This document shows, piece by piece, positions 44,187-57,871 of a stretch of 64,000 bases of DNA. Both the position numbers and the translations under genes were made by a program. The notes beneath the pieces are model-generated. The model saw only the letters and a list, made by a program, of their open reading frames with translations, was not told the origin of the DNA and searched no databases. This stretch comes from Bdellovibrionota bacterium. GTDB taxonomy: Bacteria > Bdellovibrionota_C > UBA2361 > JAAYZI01. The stretch is from the NCBI GenBank assembly GCA_050950765.1, contig JBMNIF010000001.1, positions 128,001 to 192,000 of the forward strand, written 5' to 3'. The stretch's first letter is position 1, and each line of letters starts with the position of its first letter.

Positions 44187-46055
44187 ATGCAAGTAGTAGG
44201 ACAACCGAGAGAACAACGACAGGTAAAAAAACGACAAGCAGAACAGAAAAACACTAAGCAAGGGGGAAATGAAGCTTCTTCTGTTCTTAGCGACTATTCG
44301 TTTTATCCTACCGATAATAGCCCTTGGGTCGATAATAGCCCTTCGATTGAATATTTTTATGCAACCCATGTTTTCCCATCTAACGACGAAACCACTGAAG
44401 CTATAAATGCTTTTCAAGAACAAGCTTATGAATTCAAAAAACAGTTTTTAAACAGCAAAGAGGTAATGTCTTATATCATATCACTAGTTAAAAAATATTT
44501 AACATTAAAAAGAAGTGAGCGTGACACACAATTTTTTTACGACAAAACGTTAAAAAGTTTTAAAAAACTATTACACGAAATCATACCTCCTTATTTTAAA
44601 ACATCTAATTCTTTTAATGATGATGATATAAAGATTTTAATAAAACATGCTACTAATAATTTTTATGCTTATATTATATCTAAGATACGAAAAGATATAA
44701 AACAAAAAGATATAGACGATTCAAATGAAACTAAATTAAAAACAGAAAAAGTAAAACTCTTAGAAAATATTATTAGTAGCTATCACAATTTAACTGAAAA
44801 AAGAAATTATATAGTAGATGCATATAGACAACTTATTAATTACGTCATTAATAAAGATTTTTATTATGAAGATAGAAATGCTACTCAATTCGCTGGGCTT
44901 TTAGGGCTTATTGAAGCCATCGACACTTATGATTCAAAAAAAGAAATCCCTTTTAAAAATTATGCTATAATTATGATTAAATTTTCTATCCAAAAGAATC
45001 TCAGAAGAACAAGAAGAGGAATAGTGGACCTATCTTTTGCAGATTTAGCAGGCGATGGCGATGATTCGGACTACCATGGTCAAGTCGCAGACCCTCGAGA
45101 CCCTTACTCTCAAAAAAACGTAGAAACCGCCCATAAATTATTAGGATATACTTACGGGAAAGCAAAATATATTATACAAATTTCGTGCGGATTTTACGCA
45201 AAAAACGAATATGAATATTATACGTCGCTTGGTGTTATGTCGTATCAACGTGCACACCAAATATATCAAATAACCATCGAAAAATTAAAATTTATATCAG
45301 AAGCCATAAACTATTCTCTTACGCAAGATGAAATCAAGGATATAAAAAATGAAATCAAAGAAAAACTACCAACGATACCAAACAATTATCGCCAAACCAT
45401 ATCGAAACACCTTGGTTTAGATGGAAATAGAGAATATTCAAGAGCTGAGCTATGTGAAGATTTCAATTGCGGAATTGAAACGACAGATACTTATATTTTT
45501 AATGCACTTAAAGGAACTTTTTCTAAAGACCCTAAAATGTTTAATAAAGCATTAAAATTTTCATTAACTATTGAAGATGAATTTATAAAAGAAAATATAT
45601 ATCCTTTGCCACATAATTTATACTCTATTTTAACAGAAGAAGAATCTAGGTTTTTAAAATGTAGATATGATTGGAAAAAAGGAATCTTTAAAGACCTAAA
45701 TCAAGTCGCAAATGATTTAAATACAGATATAACAGAACTTATCGAAATTGAAAGACGAGTTATAGAAAAATTAAAACAATATGAACCAGAAACATTCCCT
45801 AAAATTGGCGCAATATTTAAGGCTAATATTGAAAGCGGAAATATTCAAAGCTCTTTCGATAAAAACTCTCTTTTTATGTTATCTTCACTGCAATTTGAAA
45901 TTATAAATTTAAGGCACGGAATTACTACTTCGGAAAAGTTATCAAAAGAAGATATTATTGAAAAGCTATCTATCGACGCTCAAACGTACGACAAAGAATA
46001 TAAAAATGCGGTTTCTATCTTAAGAGAATTTAGACTAAATACAAACGAGAGTTAA
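44187..46055 (+). CDS. Divergent sigma-70-like protein: region 2 plus about four tandem region-4-like HTH domains
   Basis: RNYIVDAYRQLI...GLLGLIEAIDTYDSKKEIPFKNYA (region 2); repeated L...E..II..R.GL....S..E.A..L segments; AT-rich. Confidence 0.7.
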   Translation: MQVVGQPREQRQVKKRQAEQKNTKQGGNEASSVLSDYSFYPTDNSPWVDNSPSIEYFYATHVFPSNDETTEAINAFQEQAYEFKKQFLNSKEVMSYIISLVKKYLTLKRSERDTQFFYDKTLKSFKKLLHEIIPPYFKTSNSFNDDDIKILIKHATNNFYAYIISKIRKDIKQKDIDDSNETKLKTEKVKLLENIISSYHNLTEKRNYIVDAYRQLINYVINKDFYYEDRNATQFAGLLGLIEAIDTYDSKKEIPFKNYAIIMIKFSIQKNLRRTRRGIVDLSFADLAGDGDDSDYHGQVADPRDPYSQKNVETAHKLLGYTYGKAKYIIQISCGFYAKNEYEYYTSLGVMSYQRAHQIYQITIEKLKFISEAINYSLTQDEIKDIKNEIKEKLPTIPNNYRQTISKHLGLDGNREYSRAELCEDFNCGIETTDTYIFNALKGTFSKDPKMFNKALKFSLTIEDEFIKENIYPLPHNLYSILTEEESRFLKCRYDWKKGIFKDLNQVANDLNTDITELIEIERRVIEKLKQYEPETFPKIGAIFKANIESGNIQSSFDKNSLFMLSSLQFEIINLRHGITTSEKLSKEDIIEKLSIDAQTYDKEYKNAVSILREFRLNTNES

Positions 46056-46891
46056 CGAATTAACTTAACCACTTTCATAAAAAAATGATTAAACTAAAAA
46101 AATAAAGAAAAATGATACGTAGTAAAAAAGGCAAAATAGAACAACATGATGATTTTATCGAATGCTCATTTCCTCCCTCTTGCACAGCTATTAGAGGCGA
46201 TAATCTAAGCCCTGATAATAAGAAAACTATAGAAGCTATACGTTTATATAAGCAAGAAATGGAAAACTTTAAAGAAAAGTTTTTTAATAATGAAGAAGTT
46301 ACCCCTTATATCATCTCTCTAATTAGGGAGTATACATCTTTTAAAAAGTACAATATTTCAGATAATTTTACTAACCTTAGCGGACAAGATATTAAAGAAC
46401 TACAAGAGGTACTAGAAAGAATTTCTGATCCATCTTTTAAAACGTCACCTCTCTTAGAAAGTAGTGATATAAAAATACTAAGGCATAATGCAAAAGAATT
46501 TTTTTATTCAAATATTATGGGTAGAATAAAAAAAACTTTTGAAAATTTAAATAAAACTAATACGGAAAAAGAAAAATTAGAAGCACTATCTAGCATTCTT
46601 AATAGCTACAATCTTATAGCACAAATAAGAAACGATATAATAAAACCATACGAACGGATTATTAAAAATATAATCTTAAGACATATCATAAAACATGAGA
46701 TAAGCAGAAGCTGCGAAGACCTTTACTCTAGTGTTTTTTTAAAAGTTGTAGAAATAATTAGTGGTTATGACCACGAAAAAAACACATCTTTTTCAACTTA
46801 TCTTTGTGCTGGTTCAGCGTGAAATGGACATTTGAGGTGCTGAAAAAAGCTACTATAATAGCCTGAGTGATATTAACTAATGGGGTGAATA

Positions 46892-47197
46892 ATGGGAAAA
46901 CATTTTAGTGCAGAAGATAAGGTTAAGATATTGAAGGAGCATTTATTAGGAAATAAGCCGTTATCGAGTTTATGCGATAAATACGGCGTACACATTAGTA
47001 CATTTTATGAATGGCAGAAGCTATTATTTGAGGGAGCTATCCAAATTTTTGAGCGGAATAAAAATGGTAGGAAAGAAGAAAAGAAGCAAGCTGAACGGAT
47101 AGATATTTTGGAGAAGAAGCTAACGAAGAAGGATTCTGCGCTAGCGGAGCTTTTGGGGCTTCATATAGATTTAAAAAAAAAGCTTGGGGAGCTTTAA
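46892..47197 (+). CDS. IS3 OrfA (HTH)
   Basis: FSAEDKVKIL...CDKYGVH.STFYEW; ends in an A9G slippery run at 47173-47182. Confidence 0.92.
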   Translation: MGKHFSAEDKVKILKEHLLGNKPLSSLCDKYGVHISTFYEWQKLLFEGAIQIFERNKNGRKEEKKQAERIDILEKKLTKKDSALAELLGLHIDLKKKLGEL

Positions 47198-48195
47198 CGA
47201 AGCGTTGGGTTGAGCCACAAATACGAGATGAGGTGATAGATTTTGTACATGAATGGCAAGAGAAATCAGAAATGAAGCGGGAGATGTTTATAAAGAGGTT
47301 AGGGATAACACGGAGCAAGTACTATGCTTGGGAAAAACATTACGGTAAAGAGAACTTTCATAACGGGCTAATTCCGAGAGATTACTGGCTATTACCCAGT
47401 GAAAGGGAGGCTATTATTAAGTATTATTTAGAGCACTCAAGAGTAGGTTATCGAGCATTAACATACATGATGCTTGACGCAGATGTTGTGGCAGTATCCC
47501 CTGCGACGACCTATAGAGTATTGAAAAGTGCTGGCTTAATGCGTTGCTGGAATGGTTTAAAAAGCAAGAAAGGGACAGGATTTGAACAACCACTTAACCC
47601 GCATGAACATTGGCATACGGATGTTTCATATATCAATATTTGTGGCACATTTTACTATTTTATTGGAGTTTTGGATGGATGTAGTCGGTATTTAGTTGCA
47701 TGGGACATTAGAGAATCGATGAAAGAAATAGATATTGAAGTAGTATTACAAAAGGCTAGAGAAAGTTTTCCAGACGCAAGACCGCGAATTATTTCAGATA
47801 ACGGTTCAGCCTATATTTCAAAAGAGTTTAAGAATTTTATAAAGATATCTGGTATGACTCACGTCAAGACATCACCGTTCTATCCACAATCGAACGGTAA
47901 GATGGAGAGATTTAATGGGACATTAAAAGTAGAAGCGATACGACCTAACACTCCAGTATCACTTGATGATGCGAAAACTATAGTGAGTAAGTTTGTCGAA
48001 GAATATAACAATCAGCGGTTACATTGTGCGCTAGGTTATATAACACCAAATGATAGATTGAATAACAAGCAAGAGGAGATATTTAGAGCTCGAGACAGCA
48101 AATTGGAAGCTGCTAGAGCACATCGCAAGTTAGTAAGAGAGGGGTACCCCTCTCTTACTAACTACAACATTGAACAACAAGCTCAGGTGTGTTAA
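47173..48195 (+). CDS. IS3 OrfB DDE transposase, -1 frame relative to OrfA
   Basis: WHTDVSY, ISDNGSAY, PQSNGKMERFN; frame open from the slippery site (track start 47233). Confidence 0.92.
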   Translation, partial: KKKAWGALTKRWVEPQIRDEVIDFVHEWQEKSEMKREMFIKRLGITRSKYYAWEKHYGKENFHNGLIPRDYWLLPSEREAIIKYYLEHSRVGYRALTYMMLDADVVAVSPATTYRVLKSAGLMRCWNGLKSKKGTGFEQPLNPHEHWHTDVSYINICGTFYYFIGVLDGCSRYLVAWDIRESMKEIDIEVVLQKARESFPDARPRIISDNGSAYISKEFKNFIKISGMTHVKTSPFYPQSNGKMERFNGTLKVEAIRPNTPVSLDDAKTIVSKFVEEYNNQRLHCALGYITPNDRLNNKQEEIFRARDSKLEAARAHRKLVREGYPSLTNYNIEQQAQVC

Positions 48196-49235
48196 CTAGG
48201 GTTTTGTGGCATGACAAAAGTCCATTTCCATCAGAGGCAGAACATCTTTATGAGAGAATGCCTGGCGTTCTTATAGACATATATAGGGATGAAAATAAAG
48301 GAATACGAAGTTTAGGTGATGACGAAAAAAGCGTATTTTCTCCTACTCCTTTTTCGCAACTAGGTGATACGCAAATAGGTGGTAATACAGATAATGACAG
48401 CCGAGTAAATTATGACGGTAAAATTGAAGACAAACATGACCATACAGCCGATAATACGGCAAATCTTGCCTATAATTTTTTAAATTATACTTACGGAAAA
48501 GAAAGATATATTATAAAAAGTTCTTTCGGATTTTATGTAGAAGATAAATATCAATATCTTGTAGGTGATTTAGAACCTAGTGCACATTTTTATAGACAAA
48601 AAGTTTTAGGGAAATTACAACTTATATCTGTAGCCGTAGACTATTTTATCACACAAGATGAAAACAAGGATATAAAAAATGAAATTAAAAATGGGTTATC
48701 ACGCTTAGACAAACGTGTTGCTATATCTGTATCAAAACTTATCCCTAAACTTATCTCAAAACATTTTGGATTAGATGGAGATGAAGAGCAATCTAGGTTT
48801 GAACTGTGCGATATTTACGACTTAAAAATTGAGTCTATAGATAGTTATATTTTAAAATCACTCGAAATAATCTTTGAAAAAGACCCTAAAATGTTTAATA
48901 AAGCATTAAAATTTTCATTAACTATTGAAGATGAATTTATAAAAGAAAATATATATCCTTTGCCACATAATTTATACTCTATTTTAACAGAAGAAGAATC
49001 TAGGTTTTTAAAATGTAGATATGATTGGAAAAAAGGAATCTTTAAAGACCTAAACCAAGTCGCAAATGATTTAAATACAGATATAACAGAACTTATCGAA
49101 ATTGAAAGAAGAGTTATAGAAAAATTAGAAAAATATGAGCCAGAAATATTCCCTAAGCTTTGCGCAATGTTTGAAGCAAATATTGAAAGCGGAAATATAA
49201 GAGGAGAGGAGCTGTATGCTCTAGCTGTATGATCT

Positions 49236-49450
49236 GGTGCCACCCATTAGATTTGGCTAGATCTGCAGATTTTGCTGGCTTTGGTGCCACCCTTCACAGT
49301 GACACTTGAATGGGCTGCGATCGCAGAGCGAATCGGCTTGATTTTTACGGAGGTAAAAAGTGCCACCCTTTAGGGACGGCTGAACGGGCTGATACTGAAA
49401 AGCGAATCAGCTAGATTTTTACGAAGGTAAAAAGTGCCACCCTTCAGCAG
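49236..49450 (+). repeat. REP-like interspaced array, 4 motif copies
   Basis: GGTGCCACCC at 49236 and 49283; AGTGCCACCC at 49359 and 49433. Confidence 0.9.
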
Positions 49451-50366: not shown

Positions 50367-50405
50367 TAAAGAATTCCCAATTTTTGCCACTATACGGTTA
50401 AAATT

Positions 50406-51821
50406 TTAAATTTTAAGCTCTTGGCAGATTTCTTTAATGTATTTAAGCGTGGCACAATCTACCCATTTTTCTGGATTTTTTGCTGAGCGTTTTTTTACAC
50501 ACTTACTTAAAAAATGCATAACTTTTGAAAGAGAATGTCCTTTGCATTTTTGACTTTTATTGATTGGTTTTTTTATTCTTGTAAGCATAATACATGAAAT
50601 ATAATTTATAAATTCGGTTGCCATTAATCTATATGTGCCATGCACATTTTCTTCCGTTCGATTTATTATATTTTTGTATTTATAAAATAATGTCTCTATT
50701 TCCCATCTCTGTTTATATGCTTTATATATATCTCTTAAGTTTCCATCAAAATTACTCTCAAATACTATTAACCCAAAATTATCTTCCTTTTTTTTATAAA
50801 TCTCTTCATCAAATACTCCCTTTTCAATATTTCTACTAACATAACTTTTTTCTTGCTTAGCTTTTATTTCACTACTTTTATATGCATAGTAATATTTATT
50901 GTTATCTACTTTAACTTTATTACACCTTATACTGTCATTTTCGTATTTAAAAGATTCAGTAAATTTTCTATTAAGTTCATATTTAGTTATATCTTTTGAA
51001 TAATTCTTAATAGGTATCAAAAAATTAGTATTAAGTTTTTTTAATTCTTCTTTAATCTCCTTATCATTAAATCCCTTATCCATAATAATAAAACCGTTTT
51101 CAATCGTGTAAGTTTTAAGAAAATCTTTTAATGCCGTAAAATCAAGCATATTGCCAGCATACGGTGCGCAGGCTAAAGGTTCTTCGTTTTTAAGGTCATA
51201 AGCATAAATTAAATTTATATCCTTACAGCCTTTGATTCTTCCTTTCCTTGAGAATTCAGAATATATATTACTGTCTCCAGTGCTACTTTTAAGCATTCCA
51301 TCTATGACAATAGGATTATTAATATATTTACTTATCCTATAACTCATAAACTTCTCTATTAGAGTAGTTGTCTGACCTATCTTTTCTAAAAAAGCACTTA
51401 TGTTATTTCCAGATAAACCAAGCTTAGGAAATATTTCTGATATGTAATCCGTCTTGTATTCTAATAAGATTTCTCCATCTTTTAAATCTTCCTTAACCAC
51501 TCTTAACAAAGCAATGGTAAAGATTTTTTTAGCATCACTAGTATGATAAAATTTACATAAATCATAAAATATATCTTCGCACTCCTTATATATTAGCGCA
51601 GTTAATCCATATGACTTAAATTCAACTTCAAATTTAGGCTTTTCTATTGGAATATATTTACCATCAATTATTTTTCCTATTATCCCTAACTCTACGGGGT
51701 AAGGCTTGCCGTTTTTTCTGACGCTAGTTCTTTTGATAACATTGTATTCGTTTGGTGTTCTAGTTGCCTTTATTCTAGTATTTTTTGGTTTTAATTTTAA
51801 TATTTCCTCTGGTATTGGCAT
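50406..51821 (-). CDS. DDE transposase, IS4/IS1634-like
   Basis: IVIDG, IIMDKGF, YKQRWEIETLF..YK; likely start MPIPEE at 51821 with AAGGGG RBS. Confidence 0.85.
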   Translation of the reverse strand: MPIPEEILKLKPKNTRIKATRTPNEYNVIKRTSVRKNGKPYPVELGIIGKIIDGKYIPIEKPKFEVEFKSYGLTALIYKECEDIFYDLCKFYHTSDAKKIFTIALLRVVKEDLKDGEILLEYKTDYISEIFPKLGLSGNNISAFLEKIGQTTTLIEKFMSYRISKYINNPIVIDGMLKSSTGDSNIYSEFSRKGRIKGCKDINLIYAYDLKNEEPLACAPYAGNMLDFTALKDFLKTYTIENGFIIMDKGFNDKEIKEELKKLNTNFLIPIKNYSKDITKYELNRKFTESFKYENDSIRCNKVKVDNNKYYYAYKSSEIKAKQEKSYVSRNIEKGVFDEEIYKKKEDNFGLIVFESNFDGNLRDIYKAYKQRWEIETLFYKYKNIINRTEENVHGTYRLMATEFINYISCIMLTRIKKPINKSQKCKGHSLSKVMHFLSKCVKKRSAKNPEKWVDCATLKYIKEICQELKI

Positions 51822-51843
51822 TTCAAATCCCCTTAAAAAACGA

Positions 51844-52340
51844 ATAATGGCAGATCTGGCTGCAGGGTTTAGTCGGCTTTGTAGCTGGATAATGGCAGAT
51901 CTGGTGCCACCCTTCAACTTTGCTGCTTTAAGCTGCGATCTGGTCGCTAGTATCTGGTGCCACCCATTAATTTGGCTGGATCTGATAGGTTTCGGCTAGC
52001 TTTAGTTTTGGTGCCACCCTCTAGGGATGGCGGACGGTGGGCTAGCGTCTGGTGCCACCCTCTAGGGACGACGGATCAGCTACGGGGGTTAAAAAACTGG
52101 TGCCACCCTTCCAGTTGGCTGGATTTGCAGATTTTGTGGCTTTGGCTTTGGTGCCACCCTTCAGCGTTGCCGCTTTAAGCTGAATATCTGGTGCCACCCT
52201 TCAACTTTGCCGCTTTAAGCTGCGACTGGCTTTGGTGCCACCCTCTAGGGATGGCGGACGGTGGGCTAGCGTCTGGTGCCACCCTCTAGGGACGGCGGAT
52301 CAGCTACGGGGGTTAAAAAACTGGTGCCACCCTTCCAGTG
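51844..52340 (+). repeat. REP-like interspaced array, 10 copies of TGGTGCCACCC(T/A)
   Basis: Motif starts 51903, 51956, 52010, 52051, 52099, 52150, 52190, 52234, 52275, 52323 (pitch 40-54 bp). Confidence 0.95.
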
Positions 52341-52360
52341 ACAGTTCCTGCATGTAGTTA

Positions 52361-54643
52361 TTACCTCTTTAATAAATCGCTTAGTCCAGCTAATGGGGTA
52401 TTTTTAAAGGTTCCCTGTGGGGGAGTGCGCTTTTTTGGTTTTTGCAACTGTTTTGTTAGTGTGTAGTTACTACCGTCATTGCTTTCTTTCTTCATGCTTA
52501 AGGCGATTTGTCGTTTATCCGTATCTACGTTAACTACTCTAACTGTTACACGGTCTCCTGGATTAACTACGGTACGCGGATCTTTTACAAAGTTGTCACT
52601 TAATTGAGAGACGTGCACTAAACCGTCCTGATGTACGCCAATATCAACAAAAGCTCCAAAATTCGCAACATTAGTCACAATACCAGGGCAACTCATGCCG
52701 ATTTTAAGGTCAGATAGTTCGTGGATATCTTCCCTGAAAGAAAATGCTACAAAGGTTTCTCGTGGATCCCTTCCTGGTTTTTCAAGCTCTTTAATAATAT
52801 CAGCACTCGTAAACTCACCGAGATCATTTTTAAAGATGCTATCTTTTTTTAGTAGGGCAGCACCAACGCCGATTAAATCACTTACTGTCTTGTTTAAACG
52901 TTCTGCCGTGATTCTTAACGCTTCATACCTTTCTGGGTGTACACCAGTATTATCTAAGGGATTTTCAGATTCCGGAATCCTTAAAAATCCGGCAGCTTGC
53001 TCGAAAGCTTTTCCGCTAAAACGTGGGACCGATAGTAAGTCTTGCCTAGATTTAAAAAGCCCTACATTTGTACGATACTCTACTATTGATTTTGCTAAGC
53101 TCGGTCCAATGCCCGAAACGTAAGTTAAAAGATGTTCCGATGCTGTGTTTAAATTAACTCCGACGGAGTTTACCGCAGATTCAACGACACGGGTTAATCC
53201 TTGCTTAAGAGCGGATTGTGATACGTCGTGTTGATATTGACCAACGCCGATACTTTTTGGATCCACCTTTACCAATTCTGCCAGTGGGTCTTGTAAACGA
53301 CGAGCGATGGAGATGGCGCCGCGTACTGTCAGATCTAAGTCAGGGAATTCTTGTCTTGCAACTTCACTAGCGCTGTAAATACTAGCCCCTGCTTCACTAA
53401 TAACTACAACTGGAATGTTTTGTTTTAACTCCGTAAGTACTTTACGAATAAAAGTTTCGGCTTCTCTGGATCCTGTGCCGTTCCCTATGGCAATGGCACG
53501 CAGAGCTGATTTTTCAATTAAATTTTTTATTAGCCCCTTTGCTTGTGTCTGCATGCCGTCATTTTCGATATGTATTACTCCGCTAGCAATATATTTACCT
53601 GTTTGATCTACCAAAGCTAATTTACAGCCAGTTCTTATGCCGGGATCTACACCTAAAACTGTTTTTGATCCAAACGGCGCTGCTAACAAAACCTTTCTGA
53701 CGTTTTCTGCAAAAACGGCAATAGCAGCTTCATCTGCTACCTGTTTAAGTTTGGTATGAATCTCTGCTGAAATTGTAGATAAAACATAATATTTAAAAGA
53801 GAGACGCGCTGCATTAAGCAAAATTTTTGCAGCTGTAGAATCCCTAGCAGTACAAGCTTCCGATTCATAACGTGCTTGGAGTCTATCCATTAAGTCTGGT
53901 GTAGAACCTGTAATGGTTAAAGTAAGTTCGCCCTCTTCTTCGCCGCGGCGTAATGCTAAATAACGGTGAGAGTTTTCCGGTTTTAAAAGTGATGAAATAT
54001 TTTCTGTGAATTCAAAATAATTTTCGAATTTGCTGTTTGGTTTCGGGTTCTTTCCTTTTTCGGAGGTAATGGCACCTTCTTTTAATAAAGATTCTCTCAC
54101 TAATTGACGTAATTCCATCAATTCAGTTAGTCGTTCTACAATAATGGCTTGTGCACCATCAAGGGCACCTTTGGTGTCATTGATATTCATCTCAGTGTTG
54201 ATAAAATCTGAAGCTTTTGTCTCTGCTGTAATATCAGTCGTTAAACCGTGCCCAACCTGCCAAAGCCAATCTGCCAAAGGCTCTAATCCAGCATCTCGTG
54301 CTACGGCGGCTTTTGTTTTGCGTTTTCGTTTATAAGGAAGGTAGATATCCTCAAGGGTGTTTAGTTCAAAACACTTCTCGATACTGTGTCGCAATTCCGG
54401 AGTTAATTTATTTTGTGCTTCGATCTCTCCGATAATAAATGCCTTACGTTTTTCTATTTCGTCCCATAGATTTTTTGCTTTGATGATAGTTTCAATTTCG
54501 ACCTCATCCAAACCTCCTGTCTGTTCTTTTCTATAACGAGCAATAAAGGGAATCGTACAGCCTTCTGCTGTTAATCGTAAAACAGCGTCGGCTCCTGCTA
54601 GGGGAATATTACTAAAGTTAGATCTAAACCAATCAACAAACAT
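52361..54643 (-). CDS. tex: Tex/YhgF transcription accessory protein
   Basis: TIPFIARYRKE, GVDPGIRTGCK, IGVGQYQHDV, C-terminal S1 domain. Confidence 0.95.
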   Translation of the reverse strand: MFVDWFRSNFSNIPLAGADAVLRLTAEGCTIPFIARYRKEQTGGLDEVEIETIIKAKNLWDEIEKRKAFIIGEIEAQNKLTPELRHSIEKCFELNTLEDIYLPYKRKRKTKAAVARDAGLEPLADWLWQVGHGLTTDITAETKASDFINTEMNINDTKGALDGAQAIIVERLTELMELRQLVRESLLKEGAITSEKGKNPKPNSKFENYFEFTENISSLLKPENSHRYLALRRGEEEGELTLTITGSTPDLMDRLQARYESEACTARDSTAAKILLNAARLSFKYYVLSTISAEIHTKLKQVADEAAIAVFAENVRKVLLAAPFGSKTVLGVDPGIRTGCKLALVDQTGKYIASGVIHIENDGMQTQAKGLIKNLIEKSALRAIAIGNGTGSREAETFIRKVLTELKQNIPVVVISEAGASIYSASEVARQEFPDLDLTVRGAISIARRLQDPLAELVKVDPKSIGVGQYQHDVSQSALKQGLTRVVESAVNSVGVNLNTASEHLLTYVSGIGPSLAKSIVEYRTNVGLFKSRQDLLSVPRFSGKAFEQAAGFLRIPESENPLDNTGVHPERYEALRITAERLNKTVSDLIGVGAALLKKDSIFKNDLGEFTSADIIKELEKPGRDPRETFVAFSFREDIHELSDLKIGMSCPGIVTNVANFGAFVDIGVHQDGLVHVSQLSDNFVKDPRTVVNPGDRVTVRVVNVDTDKRQIALSMKKESNDGSNYTLTKQLQKPKKRTPPQGTFKNTPLAGLSDLLKR

Positions 54644-56010: not shown

Positions 56011-56066
56011 TTGTCCCTGGTGCCACCCACCAGCGCTAAGCCCTTGTCACTGGTGCCACCCACCAG
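56011..56066 (+). repeat. Pair of REP-like motifs downstream of the RAYT gene
   Basis: TTGTC(C/A)CTGGTGCCACCCACCAG twice; motif starts 56019 and 56052. Confidence 0.9.
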
Positions 56067-56278: not shown

Positions 56279-57247
56279 TCAGGTCGCCACCCCGCAAAGC
56301 CTACCTACAATAGGCATACTCGGACGAAATGCCCCATAAACAAACTTGGCTGAAATATCACCTTGCTTCCACTTCTTCCAAGCCTTTCTACACTCTTCAC
56401 AAAAAGCCTTATATTCTGCTATCGCCTTTATCCGTAACTCCTTAATCCAACAAATTAAATACGGCGTACGTGTCTTCTTCTTAGGTACATACGCAATATT
56501 TATCGATTGCTGCTGCACTTTACGCATCCCCATAAAATGCCCCTTCCTTTCAAGTGCAATCTCTTCTTCCCTTTTTGAAATCTCTGTCATTATTGTTTTA
56601 AAGATCTCTTCAGACGTAAGGTTTTTTGATTCTTCAAAACAATTCTTCCAAGCATCAGGGGTAATCTTAAGCTCATGACAAGTGTGCGGAAACATATTAA
56701 GCATTTTTAATAAAATAGCATCGCTTATTTTATGAAGTCTCTGCGGTAACTTACGTAAATTAGTAGAAGAGGTATACTTACCCTGCACTGTTAAAGAACC
56801 TGATTTATACATTCTAAAACTACTACACCCTTCCCAATCAGCAGCGTGTGCAACGAGTCCTGCTTTTACAGGATTTATATAAATATAGACTATCTTATCG
56901 ATAACATCATTATGAGTTACCAAACGTTGCTCCTTAAAACGTCCATCCCAAACGTTTCTCCTATATTGCGGTGTTAGTTTCTTAATAGCACGTGCAACTG
57001 CACTTTCCATCTCTCCCATAAATGCAGAGATGTGCTTTCCTTCACCAACTAATATCATGTGAAAGTGGTTACTCATCCAATTAAAATGAGCAATTCTAAC
57101 ACGATGGTGCTCTTGGCAACGTGCCATAATCCCTAACAGGATCCATTTCATAAAAAGGCGTGCTAGAAATGGCAAGCCAGATAATGTTCTATTGGTGACA
57201 TGTACCACCATTTTATTAGGATTTCTCCTATCTCTACGATTTCTCAT
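56279..57247 (-). CDS. HUH/Y1 tyrosine transposase, REP-associated (RAYT-like), long form
   Basis: HVTNR, WMSNHFHMIL (HUH), VWDGRFK, YIYINPVKAGLV (catalytic Tyr), WEGCSS; no adjacent tnpB. Confidence 0.88.
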   Translation of the reverse strand: MRNRRDRRNPNKMVVHVTNRTLSGLPFLARLFMKWILLGIMARCQEHHRVRIAHFNWMSNHFHMILVGEGKHISAFMGEMESAVARAIKKLTPQYRRNVWDGRFKEQRLVTHNDVIDKIVYIYINPVKAGLVAHAADWEGCSSFRMYKSGSLTVQGKYTSSTNLRKLPQRLHKISDAILLKMLNMFPHTCHELKITPDAWKNCFEESKNLTSEEIFKTIMTEISKREEEIALERKGHFMGMRKVQQQSINIAYVPKKKTRTPYLICWIKELRIKAIAEYKAFCEECRKAWKKWKQGDISAKFVYGAFRPSMPIVGRLCGVAT

Positions 57248-57397
57248 AAGACAACTCCAGAAAAAAAATAAAAATAATTAATAAATTGGCAGAATTGCCG
57301 GTTAGCTTGGCAGGATTGCCAAATTCTAACGCCTAATTGTCGCTAGAGTTGGGATTTTATTGTGGGTAAAAATGAAAAAAGTTTGGAGATTGGGATT

Positions 57398-57871
57398 GGT
57401 GCCACCCTTTAGTGCGAGGATGGTGTTAGAAAAAGAAAAGAAGGGTGGCACCAGTTTTACCCCCGTGAAGACCTAGCTGATCCGTTTTACAGTTCCAGCC
57501 CGTCCGATTGTCCCTGAAGGGTGGCACCAGTGACAAGCCTGCAACAATTGCTGATTTAAGGGCAAAAAGAAGGGTGGCACCAGTTTTTTAACCCCCGTGA
57601 AGACCTAGCTGATCCGTTTTGCAGTCCCAGCCCGTTCAGTTGTCCCTGAAGGGTGGCACCAGTGACAAGCCTGCAATAATTGCTGATTTAAGGGCAAAAA
57701 GAAGGGTGGCACCAGTTTTTTAACCCCCGTGAAGACCTAGCTGACTCTGTTTTCAGTTACAGCCCGTTCGGTTGTCCCTGAAGGGTGGCACCAGTTTTTA
57801 CCCCCGTGAAGAGCTAGCTGATCCGTTTTGCAGTCCCAGCCCGTCCGGTCGTCCCTGAAGGGTGGCACCAG
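57398..57871 (-). repeat. REP-like array upstream of the RAYT gene: one forward and seven reverse motif copies
   Basis: GGTGCCACCC at 57398; GGGTGGCACC at 57443, 57519, 57572, 57651, 57704, 57783, 57860; alternating ~77-bp and 53-bp units. Confidence 0.95.

Follow-up and report, generated by a model that had tools for sequence, protein, structure and literature searches.

The window (the whole 64-kb stretch of DNA analysed here) contains, between an IS1634-family transposase gene and tex, a tandem array of the 11-bp motif TGGTGCCACCC. Ten exact copies lie at 51902, 51955, 52009, 52050, 52098, 52149, 52189, 52233, 52274 and 52322, with pitches of 53, 54, 41, 48, 51, 40, 44, 41 and 48 bp, in agreement with the initial annotation, whose copies and pitches were all recovered. 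A further 12 exact copies that it had missed are found elsewhere in the window (49235, 49282, 56018, 56051 and 57397-57860). In total, the window holds 22 exact motifs and two one-mismatch copies against 0.20 per window expected by chance, and none of 100 shuffles approached 24. The features of the array and of related segments are as follows.

49235..49447, + strand: small sister array, with two exact motifs and two without the leading TG
50406..51821, - strand: IS1634-family transposase gene, a neighbour adjoining the array; single copy, outside the repeat system
51844..51904, + strand: leading segment, a 16-bp duplication flanking a 29-bp piece
51902..52340, + strand: head-to-tail array of ten 11-bp motifs and nine 40-54-bp units, the last unit truncated after ~8 bp
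52007..52115, + strand: 109-bp block, first copy (units 3-4 and flanking motifs)
52160..52272, + strand: units 6-8, absent from contigs of runs X7, X11 and X13
52231..52339, + strand: 109-bp block, second copy (units 8-9)
52361..54643, - strand: tex gene, a neighbour and the unique anchor for comparing alleles
56018..56061, + strand: element end downstream of the transposase gene, two stacked motifs
56279..57247, - strand: HUH/Y1 transposase gene, 322 aa, with NHFH (H61/H63) and YIYINP (Y121)
57397..57870, no strand assigned: element end upstream of the transposase gene

Spacer 3 is identical to spacer 8 and spacer 4 differs from spacer 9 at one base; the recurrence of spacers 3-4 as spacers 8-9, already pointed out in the initial annotation, corresponds to a duplicated 109-bp block (52007-52115 and 52231-52339) that is 99% identical. 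The words reported to be common to spacers 1, 6 and 7, and likewise to spacers 2 and 5, are present in the spacer comparison, as is the 16-bp duplication ahead of the array (51844-51859 and 51889-51904); the 29-bp piece between its two copies also has a CTGG end. The first unit of the sister array is the nearest relative of unit 5, and the tex stop codon is about 25-30 bp from the last motif. The repeats had been described as invariant, which holds for the ten exact copies; in part it reflects ascertainment, since one module tail with 347 copies has the exact 11-mer next to it in only 172, and decayed arrays without the motif exist.

Elsewhere in the window, two AGG-variant motif copies (59161 and 63877) flank an aminotransferase gene block. 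Two paralogous ORFs at 44187-49232 have weak sigma-70 region 2 matches and a C-terminal block in common, the second of them (46112-46822 and 48189-49232) being apparently split by an IS with an rve integrase domain (46892-48195).

The motif family and its transposase gene

In the genome analysed (2.64 Mb, five contigs), TGGTGCCACCC is present in 943 exact copies and its 9-bp core in 986, which fall into 162 clusters, 107 of them multi-copy (maximum 28 copies). Neighbouring motifs are in direct orientation in 802 of 824 pairs, and 954 of the 986 core copies lie outside ORFs (crude set of ORFs of at least 150 aa). The arrays hold 802 units, 704 of them distinct, which range in length from ~20 to >200 bp and sum to 61 kb, about 2.3% of the genome. 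Twins of at least 95% identity were found in the same array for 238/722 units and in another array for 93/722, and 57 of the 65 array pairs with such twins are on other contigs or at least 20 kb apart. The motif forms about 100 head-to-tail intergenic arrays whose units come from a common, diverging pool. In a 79-bp unit family, spacers diverge by 24% while the motif is nearly fixed; the columns flanking the fixed 11 bp vary, and one-mismatch motif variants number 77 in the first three bases and 63 in the last eight.

Arrays of 79-bp modules at G000:C2:794030-794420 and C1:65290-65570 have a decayed or deleted motif and are likely dead. Other regular, motif-free repeats were observed at G000 C4:25898, C1:454261, C2:497695, C3:143626 and C3:298424, the first of which is CRISPR-like in look, with no Cas1 match nearby.

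The transposase gene at 56279-57247, 4 kb from the array, encodes a 322-aa protein that matches PF01797 (Y1_Tnp) above the Pfam cut-off and the NCBIfam model for REP-associated tyrosine transposases (NF047646) with 67 bits, short of that model's cut-off of 80. Residues H61, H63, W100 and Y121-N125-P126 are invariant in 15 aligned homologues, and the predicted structure (pLDDT 88) best matches E. coli TnpA-REP (PDB 4ER8). The HUH motif and tyrosine are, on the predicted protein, intact. There are six full copies of the gene in the genome, differing by 0-14 nt, and the motif bounds every one of them in inverted orientation: all six have an inverted motif pair ~150 bp upstream and a motif ~220 bp downstream, which is why the outer copies are taken as terminal inverted repeats. 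Further motifs stack outward from the element ends. At the upstream end in the window, the inverted pair (57397 on the + strand, 57443 on the - strand) common to all six gene copies is followed by six more motifs stacked outward; that the same inverted left pair recurs in six of six copies is unexplained by simple insertion of a one-strand circle. Beside two gene copies, an added array-like unit is a duplicated 3' part of the transposase gene itself. We infer that this six-copy Y1 transposase is the engine of the arrays.

The adjacent IS1634 element was considered as the engine and rejected, because it is single-copy and no clear inverted repeat pairs it with the array side. A second Y1 gene, single-copy and outside the window (G000:C1:418176-419288), has YVDLNP, is subclass 2.3-like and is flanked by stacks of another motif, GGGTGTCC, with 221 copies genome-wide; GGGTGTCC occurs inside many arrays of TGGTGCCACCC and is absent from the array at 51902..52340.

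Transposase homologues of ~30% identity are present in 36 of 40 relatives; the distant homologues with a titled source come from Bdellovibrionota and similar bins. For the scoring of element ends, 29 relatives' loci were taken and six were dropped for short flanks, leaving 23, with 15 closer homologues (41-58%) left out. A TGG-started 12-mer forms an inverted pair at similar distances in 7 of the 23 loci (two of the seven belonging to one genus), compared with 8/506 in the cross-locus control and 1/23 in direct orientation. Two of these loci carry the same 11-mer, TGGTGCCACCC, and stacks at element ends are found in L008 and L011. Two results count against the transposase reading: 16 of the 23 loci are without TGG-type inverted ends, and one relative (G019, a 92% complete genome) has 37 motif copies without a match to the 322-aa protein. 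Exact motifs number 0-5 in 37 of the 40 sampled relatives, the others being G019 (37), G025 (16) and G040 (9). An initial scan of genome contigs gave no match; a further contig scan gave eight distant loci, with TGG-type ends in none of the six whose flanks were long enough.

In G015, a Y1 homologue has, directly upstream, eleven stacked copies of a short end repeat at 15-25-bp pitch (L011:1645-1840). Loci L027-L030 of G019 and L031-L032 of G040 have the same 11-mer with stuttered outer flanks.

Strain alleles, duplication scars and a candidate nick site

Several runs carry a different form of the array. A contig from run X7 covers unit 5 and the motif at 52159, beyond which it passes into unit-9-like sequence (joint 52159>52293), a contig from run X11 has a loose end behind 52159, as in X7, and a 202-nt contig from run X13 contains the joint 52136>52272 followed by the unique tex end. 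Because unit 5 and the tex anchor are each unique in the genome, these contigs are most simply read as alleles without units 6-8, a reading based on short contigs, one of them anchored in unique DNA, in which short-sided joints may stem from repeats. Further joints from 51983 are seen in runs X11 and X8. On the IS1634 side, alignment ends at 51839 in all four runs (X7, X8, X11 and X13), with zero cover over 51846-51889; in a separate contig comparison this interval is bridged in three of four runs. As four runs stop aligning at 51839 and the X7 and X8 contigs continue with other sequence behind it, the junction between IS1634 and the array is, judging from these contigs, specific to some strains.

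The IS1634-family element itself (50367-51839, single copy) adjoins the array edge, where its upstream end has likely been deleted in this strain. In the 25 bp that separate the array's last motif from the tex stop (52336-52358), X8 and X11 show 6-7 differences, compared with ~2% in tex. The array edges seem hypervariable. Contig depths in run X1 are 15-17 on the IS side and 30-37 on the tex side, a hint of mixed alleles. JGI metagenome contigs searched with the tex-side flank gave no match.

Short tandem duplications near the motif provide a second record of rearrangement. Among 43 distinct duplications ending -40 to +9 relative to the motif, 17 end after TGG (15 at +2 and two at +3), and 12 of these are unambiguous and end exactly at +2. 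TGG-ending duplications number 17 per 943 motif anchors and 4 per 892 other TGG anchors (p 0.007, Fisher’s exact test), an excess over the control that is real but modest, about fourfold. The same scar is found at 7 of 47 end copies in three relatives (G019, G025 and G040), with one ambiguous case in addition. Read from these scars, both the site and the strand point to TGG^TGCC (A^CCA on the other strand) as the likely nick site. A pairwise comparison of flank identity located no breakpoint, because the motif itself is invariant.

The 16-bp duplication ahead of the array ends at this putative nick, between 51904 and 51905. The initial annotation had taken it to mark a decayed leading unit. 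Loss of a motif from the same base would also fit, and the leading segment is better read as a scar that breaks at the candidate nick.

Growth of the arrays and alternative explanations

Quite probably, the array is a stack of 11-bp terminal repeats from a Y1 (HUH) transposase element, and the enzyme itself has likely enlarged and reshuffled it. In the proposed mechanism, the transposase would nick inside the motif, at TGG^TGCC (on the strand with GGGTGGCA, A^CCA), and would stay attached to the flank-side 5' end while the free 3' end was lengthened outward by host polymerase. If this 3' end were rejoined to the enzyme-bound 5' end after a few bases, the trace would be a short duplication that stops at the nick; rejoining at a later motif would insert or free whole units, and these might enter again at other motifs. 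Block duplications, such as that of units 3-4 as units 8-9, probably come in addition from slippage or recombination between motifs. An amplification model of this nick-extend-reseal type has been proposed for the BIMEs of E. coli (PMC3333891, Fig. 7B), and the same source describes strand transfer by TnpA-REP in vitro (PMC3333891). The unit-wise expansion and shuffling at the motif suggested in the initial annotation agree with the near-identical twins within and between arrays, the alternative unit orders and the duplication ends fixed in the motif; the array differs between runs, so shuffling also survives the comparison with an identical structure across strains.

More tentatively, and with rather less confidence than in the reading of this one array, we propose that a long Y1 clade, unclassified and widespread in the order, may use an 11-bp non-hairpin end nicked after TGG, so that every copy would act as a rolling-circle-like origin and a recombination site. 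Such a system would move its own gene and build about 100 mosaic arrays with units swapped genome-wide, and the scars would be in-vivo traces of the BIME amplification model.

Could host processes alone have produced the arrays from a motif that the transposon merely seeded? Slippage, recombination and gene conversion between 11-16-bp repeats would explain why the duplication of units 3-4 and the loss of units 6-8 break in or near motifs, and twins are commoner within arrays (238) than between them (93). We nevertheless consider this unlikely, as 12 duplications end at one base inside the motif without overlap at the other end, twin units lie on different contigs, and the motif is nearly fixed although the spacers of the 79-bp family differ by 24%. 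Nicking, extension and resealing fit the scars because they need no overlap at the far end, whereas backward slippage on the other strand needs it.

It is less probable still that arrays derived from transposon ends are today maintained because they serve the host, for example as sites for nucleoid proteins or a helicase, as transcript ends or in mRNA stability, as for REP/BIME in E. coli. The ~61 kb (2.3% of the genome) that they occupy would accord with such a role, as would the position of the present array behind the tex stop codon and the enrichment of arrays of at least three motifs between convergent genes (35/99, compared with 170/900 background gaps). This placement fits mere tolerance equally well, however, and arrays show no bias in replication direction (56 vs 43). 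RNA folding of the array strand gave no excess of structure over shuffles (z -0.18), and promoter and terminator scans were near chance, with 2 terminator-like sites against 2.0 expected. The low copy number of the exact motif in 37 of 40 relatives and the difference in array content between strains also speak against a host role.

The constant short repeat, variable spacers and 40-54-bp pitch had raised the further possibility of a CRISPR-like or TIGR-like guide array, with a transcript processed into unit-length small RNAs that direct a protein to its targets; we regard this as very improbable. Spacers recur within the array and come from a genome-wide pool: units 1, 2, 4, 5, 7 and 9 align with units of other arrays above shuffled controls, and units 3/8 and 6 barely or not. 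None of the units of this array is closely matched over its full length by a unit elsewhere (best local scores 11-24), so a recent transfer into it from a distant array lacks support. Across the genome, 379 of 802 spacers match DNA beyond the masked arrays, not one of the 802 has a match well inside an ORF, and two non-array match sites that were inspected are decayed, motif-less arrays. Searches of the array with blastn gave chance matches only among phages (best E 0.5) and plasmids (best E 1), and an Rfam search found no family. The wide range of unit lengths genome-wide is a further point against a guide role. The genome’s two Cas1 matches are on contig C2, a different contig from that of the array, beside arrays of other, unrelated repeats of CRISPR-like length and pitch. 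A CRISPR-style guide array was rejected on the grounds that its spacers are non-unique and its repeat is a transposon end, and the guide role raised in the initial annotation fared no better in matching of spacers to phage and plasmid sets and host genes; the same annotation’s judgement that this is not CRISPR stands, with an 11-bp repeat, spacers that are not unique and no foreign matches in these searches. The arrays are most likely selfish or neutral, and not guides.

An assembly or sequencing artefact, which a repetitive and mosaic sequence might suggest, is vanishingly improbable: over 50904/50470/51522-52036 and 52086-52260, contigs from X1, X3 and X4, three runs from three studies and one of them possibly the source sample, agree with the window letter for letter, which rules out an artefact of assembly, and the same anatomy is found in other genomes.

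Relation to known systems

The closest descriptions concern TIRtron/TIRYT elements, in which a Y1 gene is associated with terminal inverted repeats (TIRs) and the TIR families are moderately abundant, some of them dispersed (Di Nocera et al., 2013; PMC3733652). The element here has the same arrangement of a Y1 gene with TIRs on both sides and a dispersed family with some dimers and clusters (PMC3733652), and it has the class-2 motifs NH[YF]H and Y---NP. Unlike the TIR families as that text describes them, it has 943 copies and mosaic head-to-tail arrays. The consensus GGGGWSAS is given there for most, not all, TIRtron TIRs (PMC3733652), and by inspection TGGTGCCACCC is without it on either strand. 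TIRtron/TIRYT may tentatively be equated with TnpA-Y1 subclass 2.1 (PMC6006769). Unlike that subclass as described, the proteins here lack a C-terminal HTH (Bac_DnaA_C, HTH_23 or HTH_28) in 15 of 15 aligned sequences (Pfam, E 0.1), and the 322-aa protein differs from TIRtron/subclass 2.1 accounts in its 190-aa tail and in its six 99%-identical gene copies. The described subclass 2.3 (PMC6006769) is similar in size (~325 aa) and in having several copies per genome, and differs in that the 322-aa protein is without the 55-aa core insertion (H61 to Y121) and has YIYINP rather than YVDLNP. These class comparisons follow the text descriptions of TIRtrons and of subclasses 2.1 and 2.3, whose figures and supplements may list related ends.

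Similarities to REP/BIME/REPIN repeats are the extragenic position, the high copy number and the link with a Y1 gene. E. coli BIME-2 with TnpA-REP, as portrayed in PMC3333891 and PMC8266576, shares with the present arrays an intergenic, mosaic and tandem layout with strain-variable copy number, and PDB 4ER8 of TnpA-REP is the closest solved structure to the predicted fold. The HUH nicking and strand transfer of the E. coli enzyme (PMC3333891) would have counterparts in the mechanism proposed here. Relative to those accounts, the motif is without a GTAG-footed hairpin (fold z -0.18) and without inverted doublets (802/824 direct), the putative cut falls at G^T / A^C instead of C^T, a single array contains non-uniform units, and the gene is multicopy. 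Pseudomonas REPINs and tandem REP arrays are likewise described as RAYT-linked short repeats with hundreds of copies, some tandem (PMC3116915; PMC5581495); what replicates there is an inverted doublet, with a RAYT that is typically single-copy, in contrast to the direct, heterogeneous units here. Insertion sequences are matched only by the multicopy, 99%-identical gene, since IS200/IS605 elements have Y---Q, a short TnpA and subterminal hairpins, unlike the Y---NP, 322 aa and TIR ends found here. CRISPR arrays also combine a constant repeat with variable spacers, with a repeat of ~24-48 bp as given in PMC3733652; they differ from the present ~100 loci, with an 11-bp repeat, shared self-derived spacers and no cas neighbours in a Cas1 search.

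No enzymology of TIR-flanked Y1 transposases was found in the literature, the works listed for the term TIRYT being surveys. Among the matches listed in a literature search for the motif string, all were unrelated as judged by title, and a search for such transposases together with their terminal repeats, tandem arrays and the phylum gave REPIN work only.

The array is a negative case for guide RNAs. The array system is real, ordinary in kind and unusual in scale, a variant of TIRtron/REP-type systems. Recombination of DNA by a compact enzyme at an 11-bp site would have practical interest. For the question of how REP-type repeats spread, this system offers a short, defined end with a predicted cut base conserved in distant relatives, together with a gene that moved recently and with arrays of strain-dependent content.
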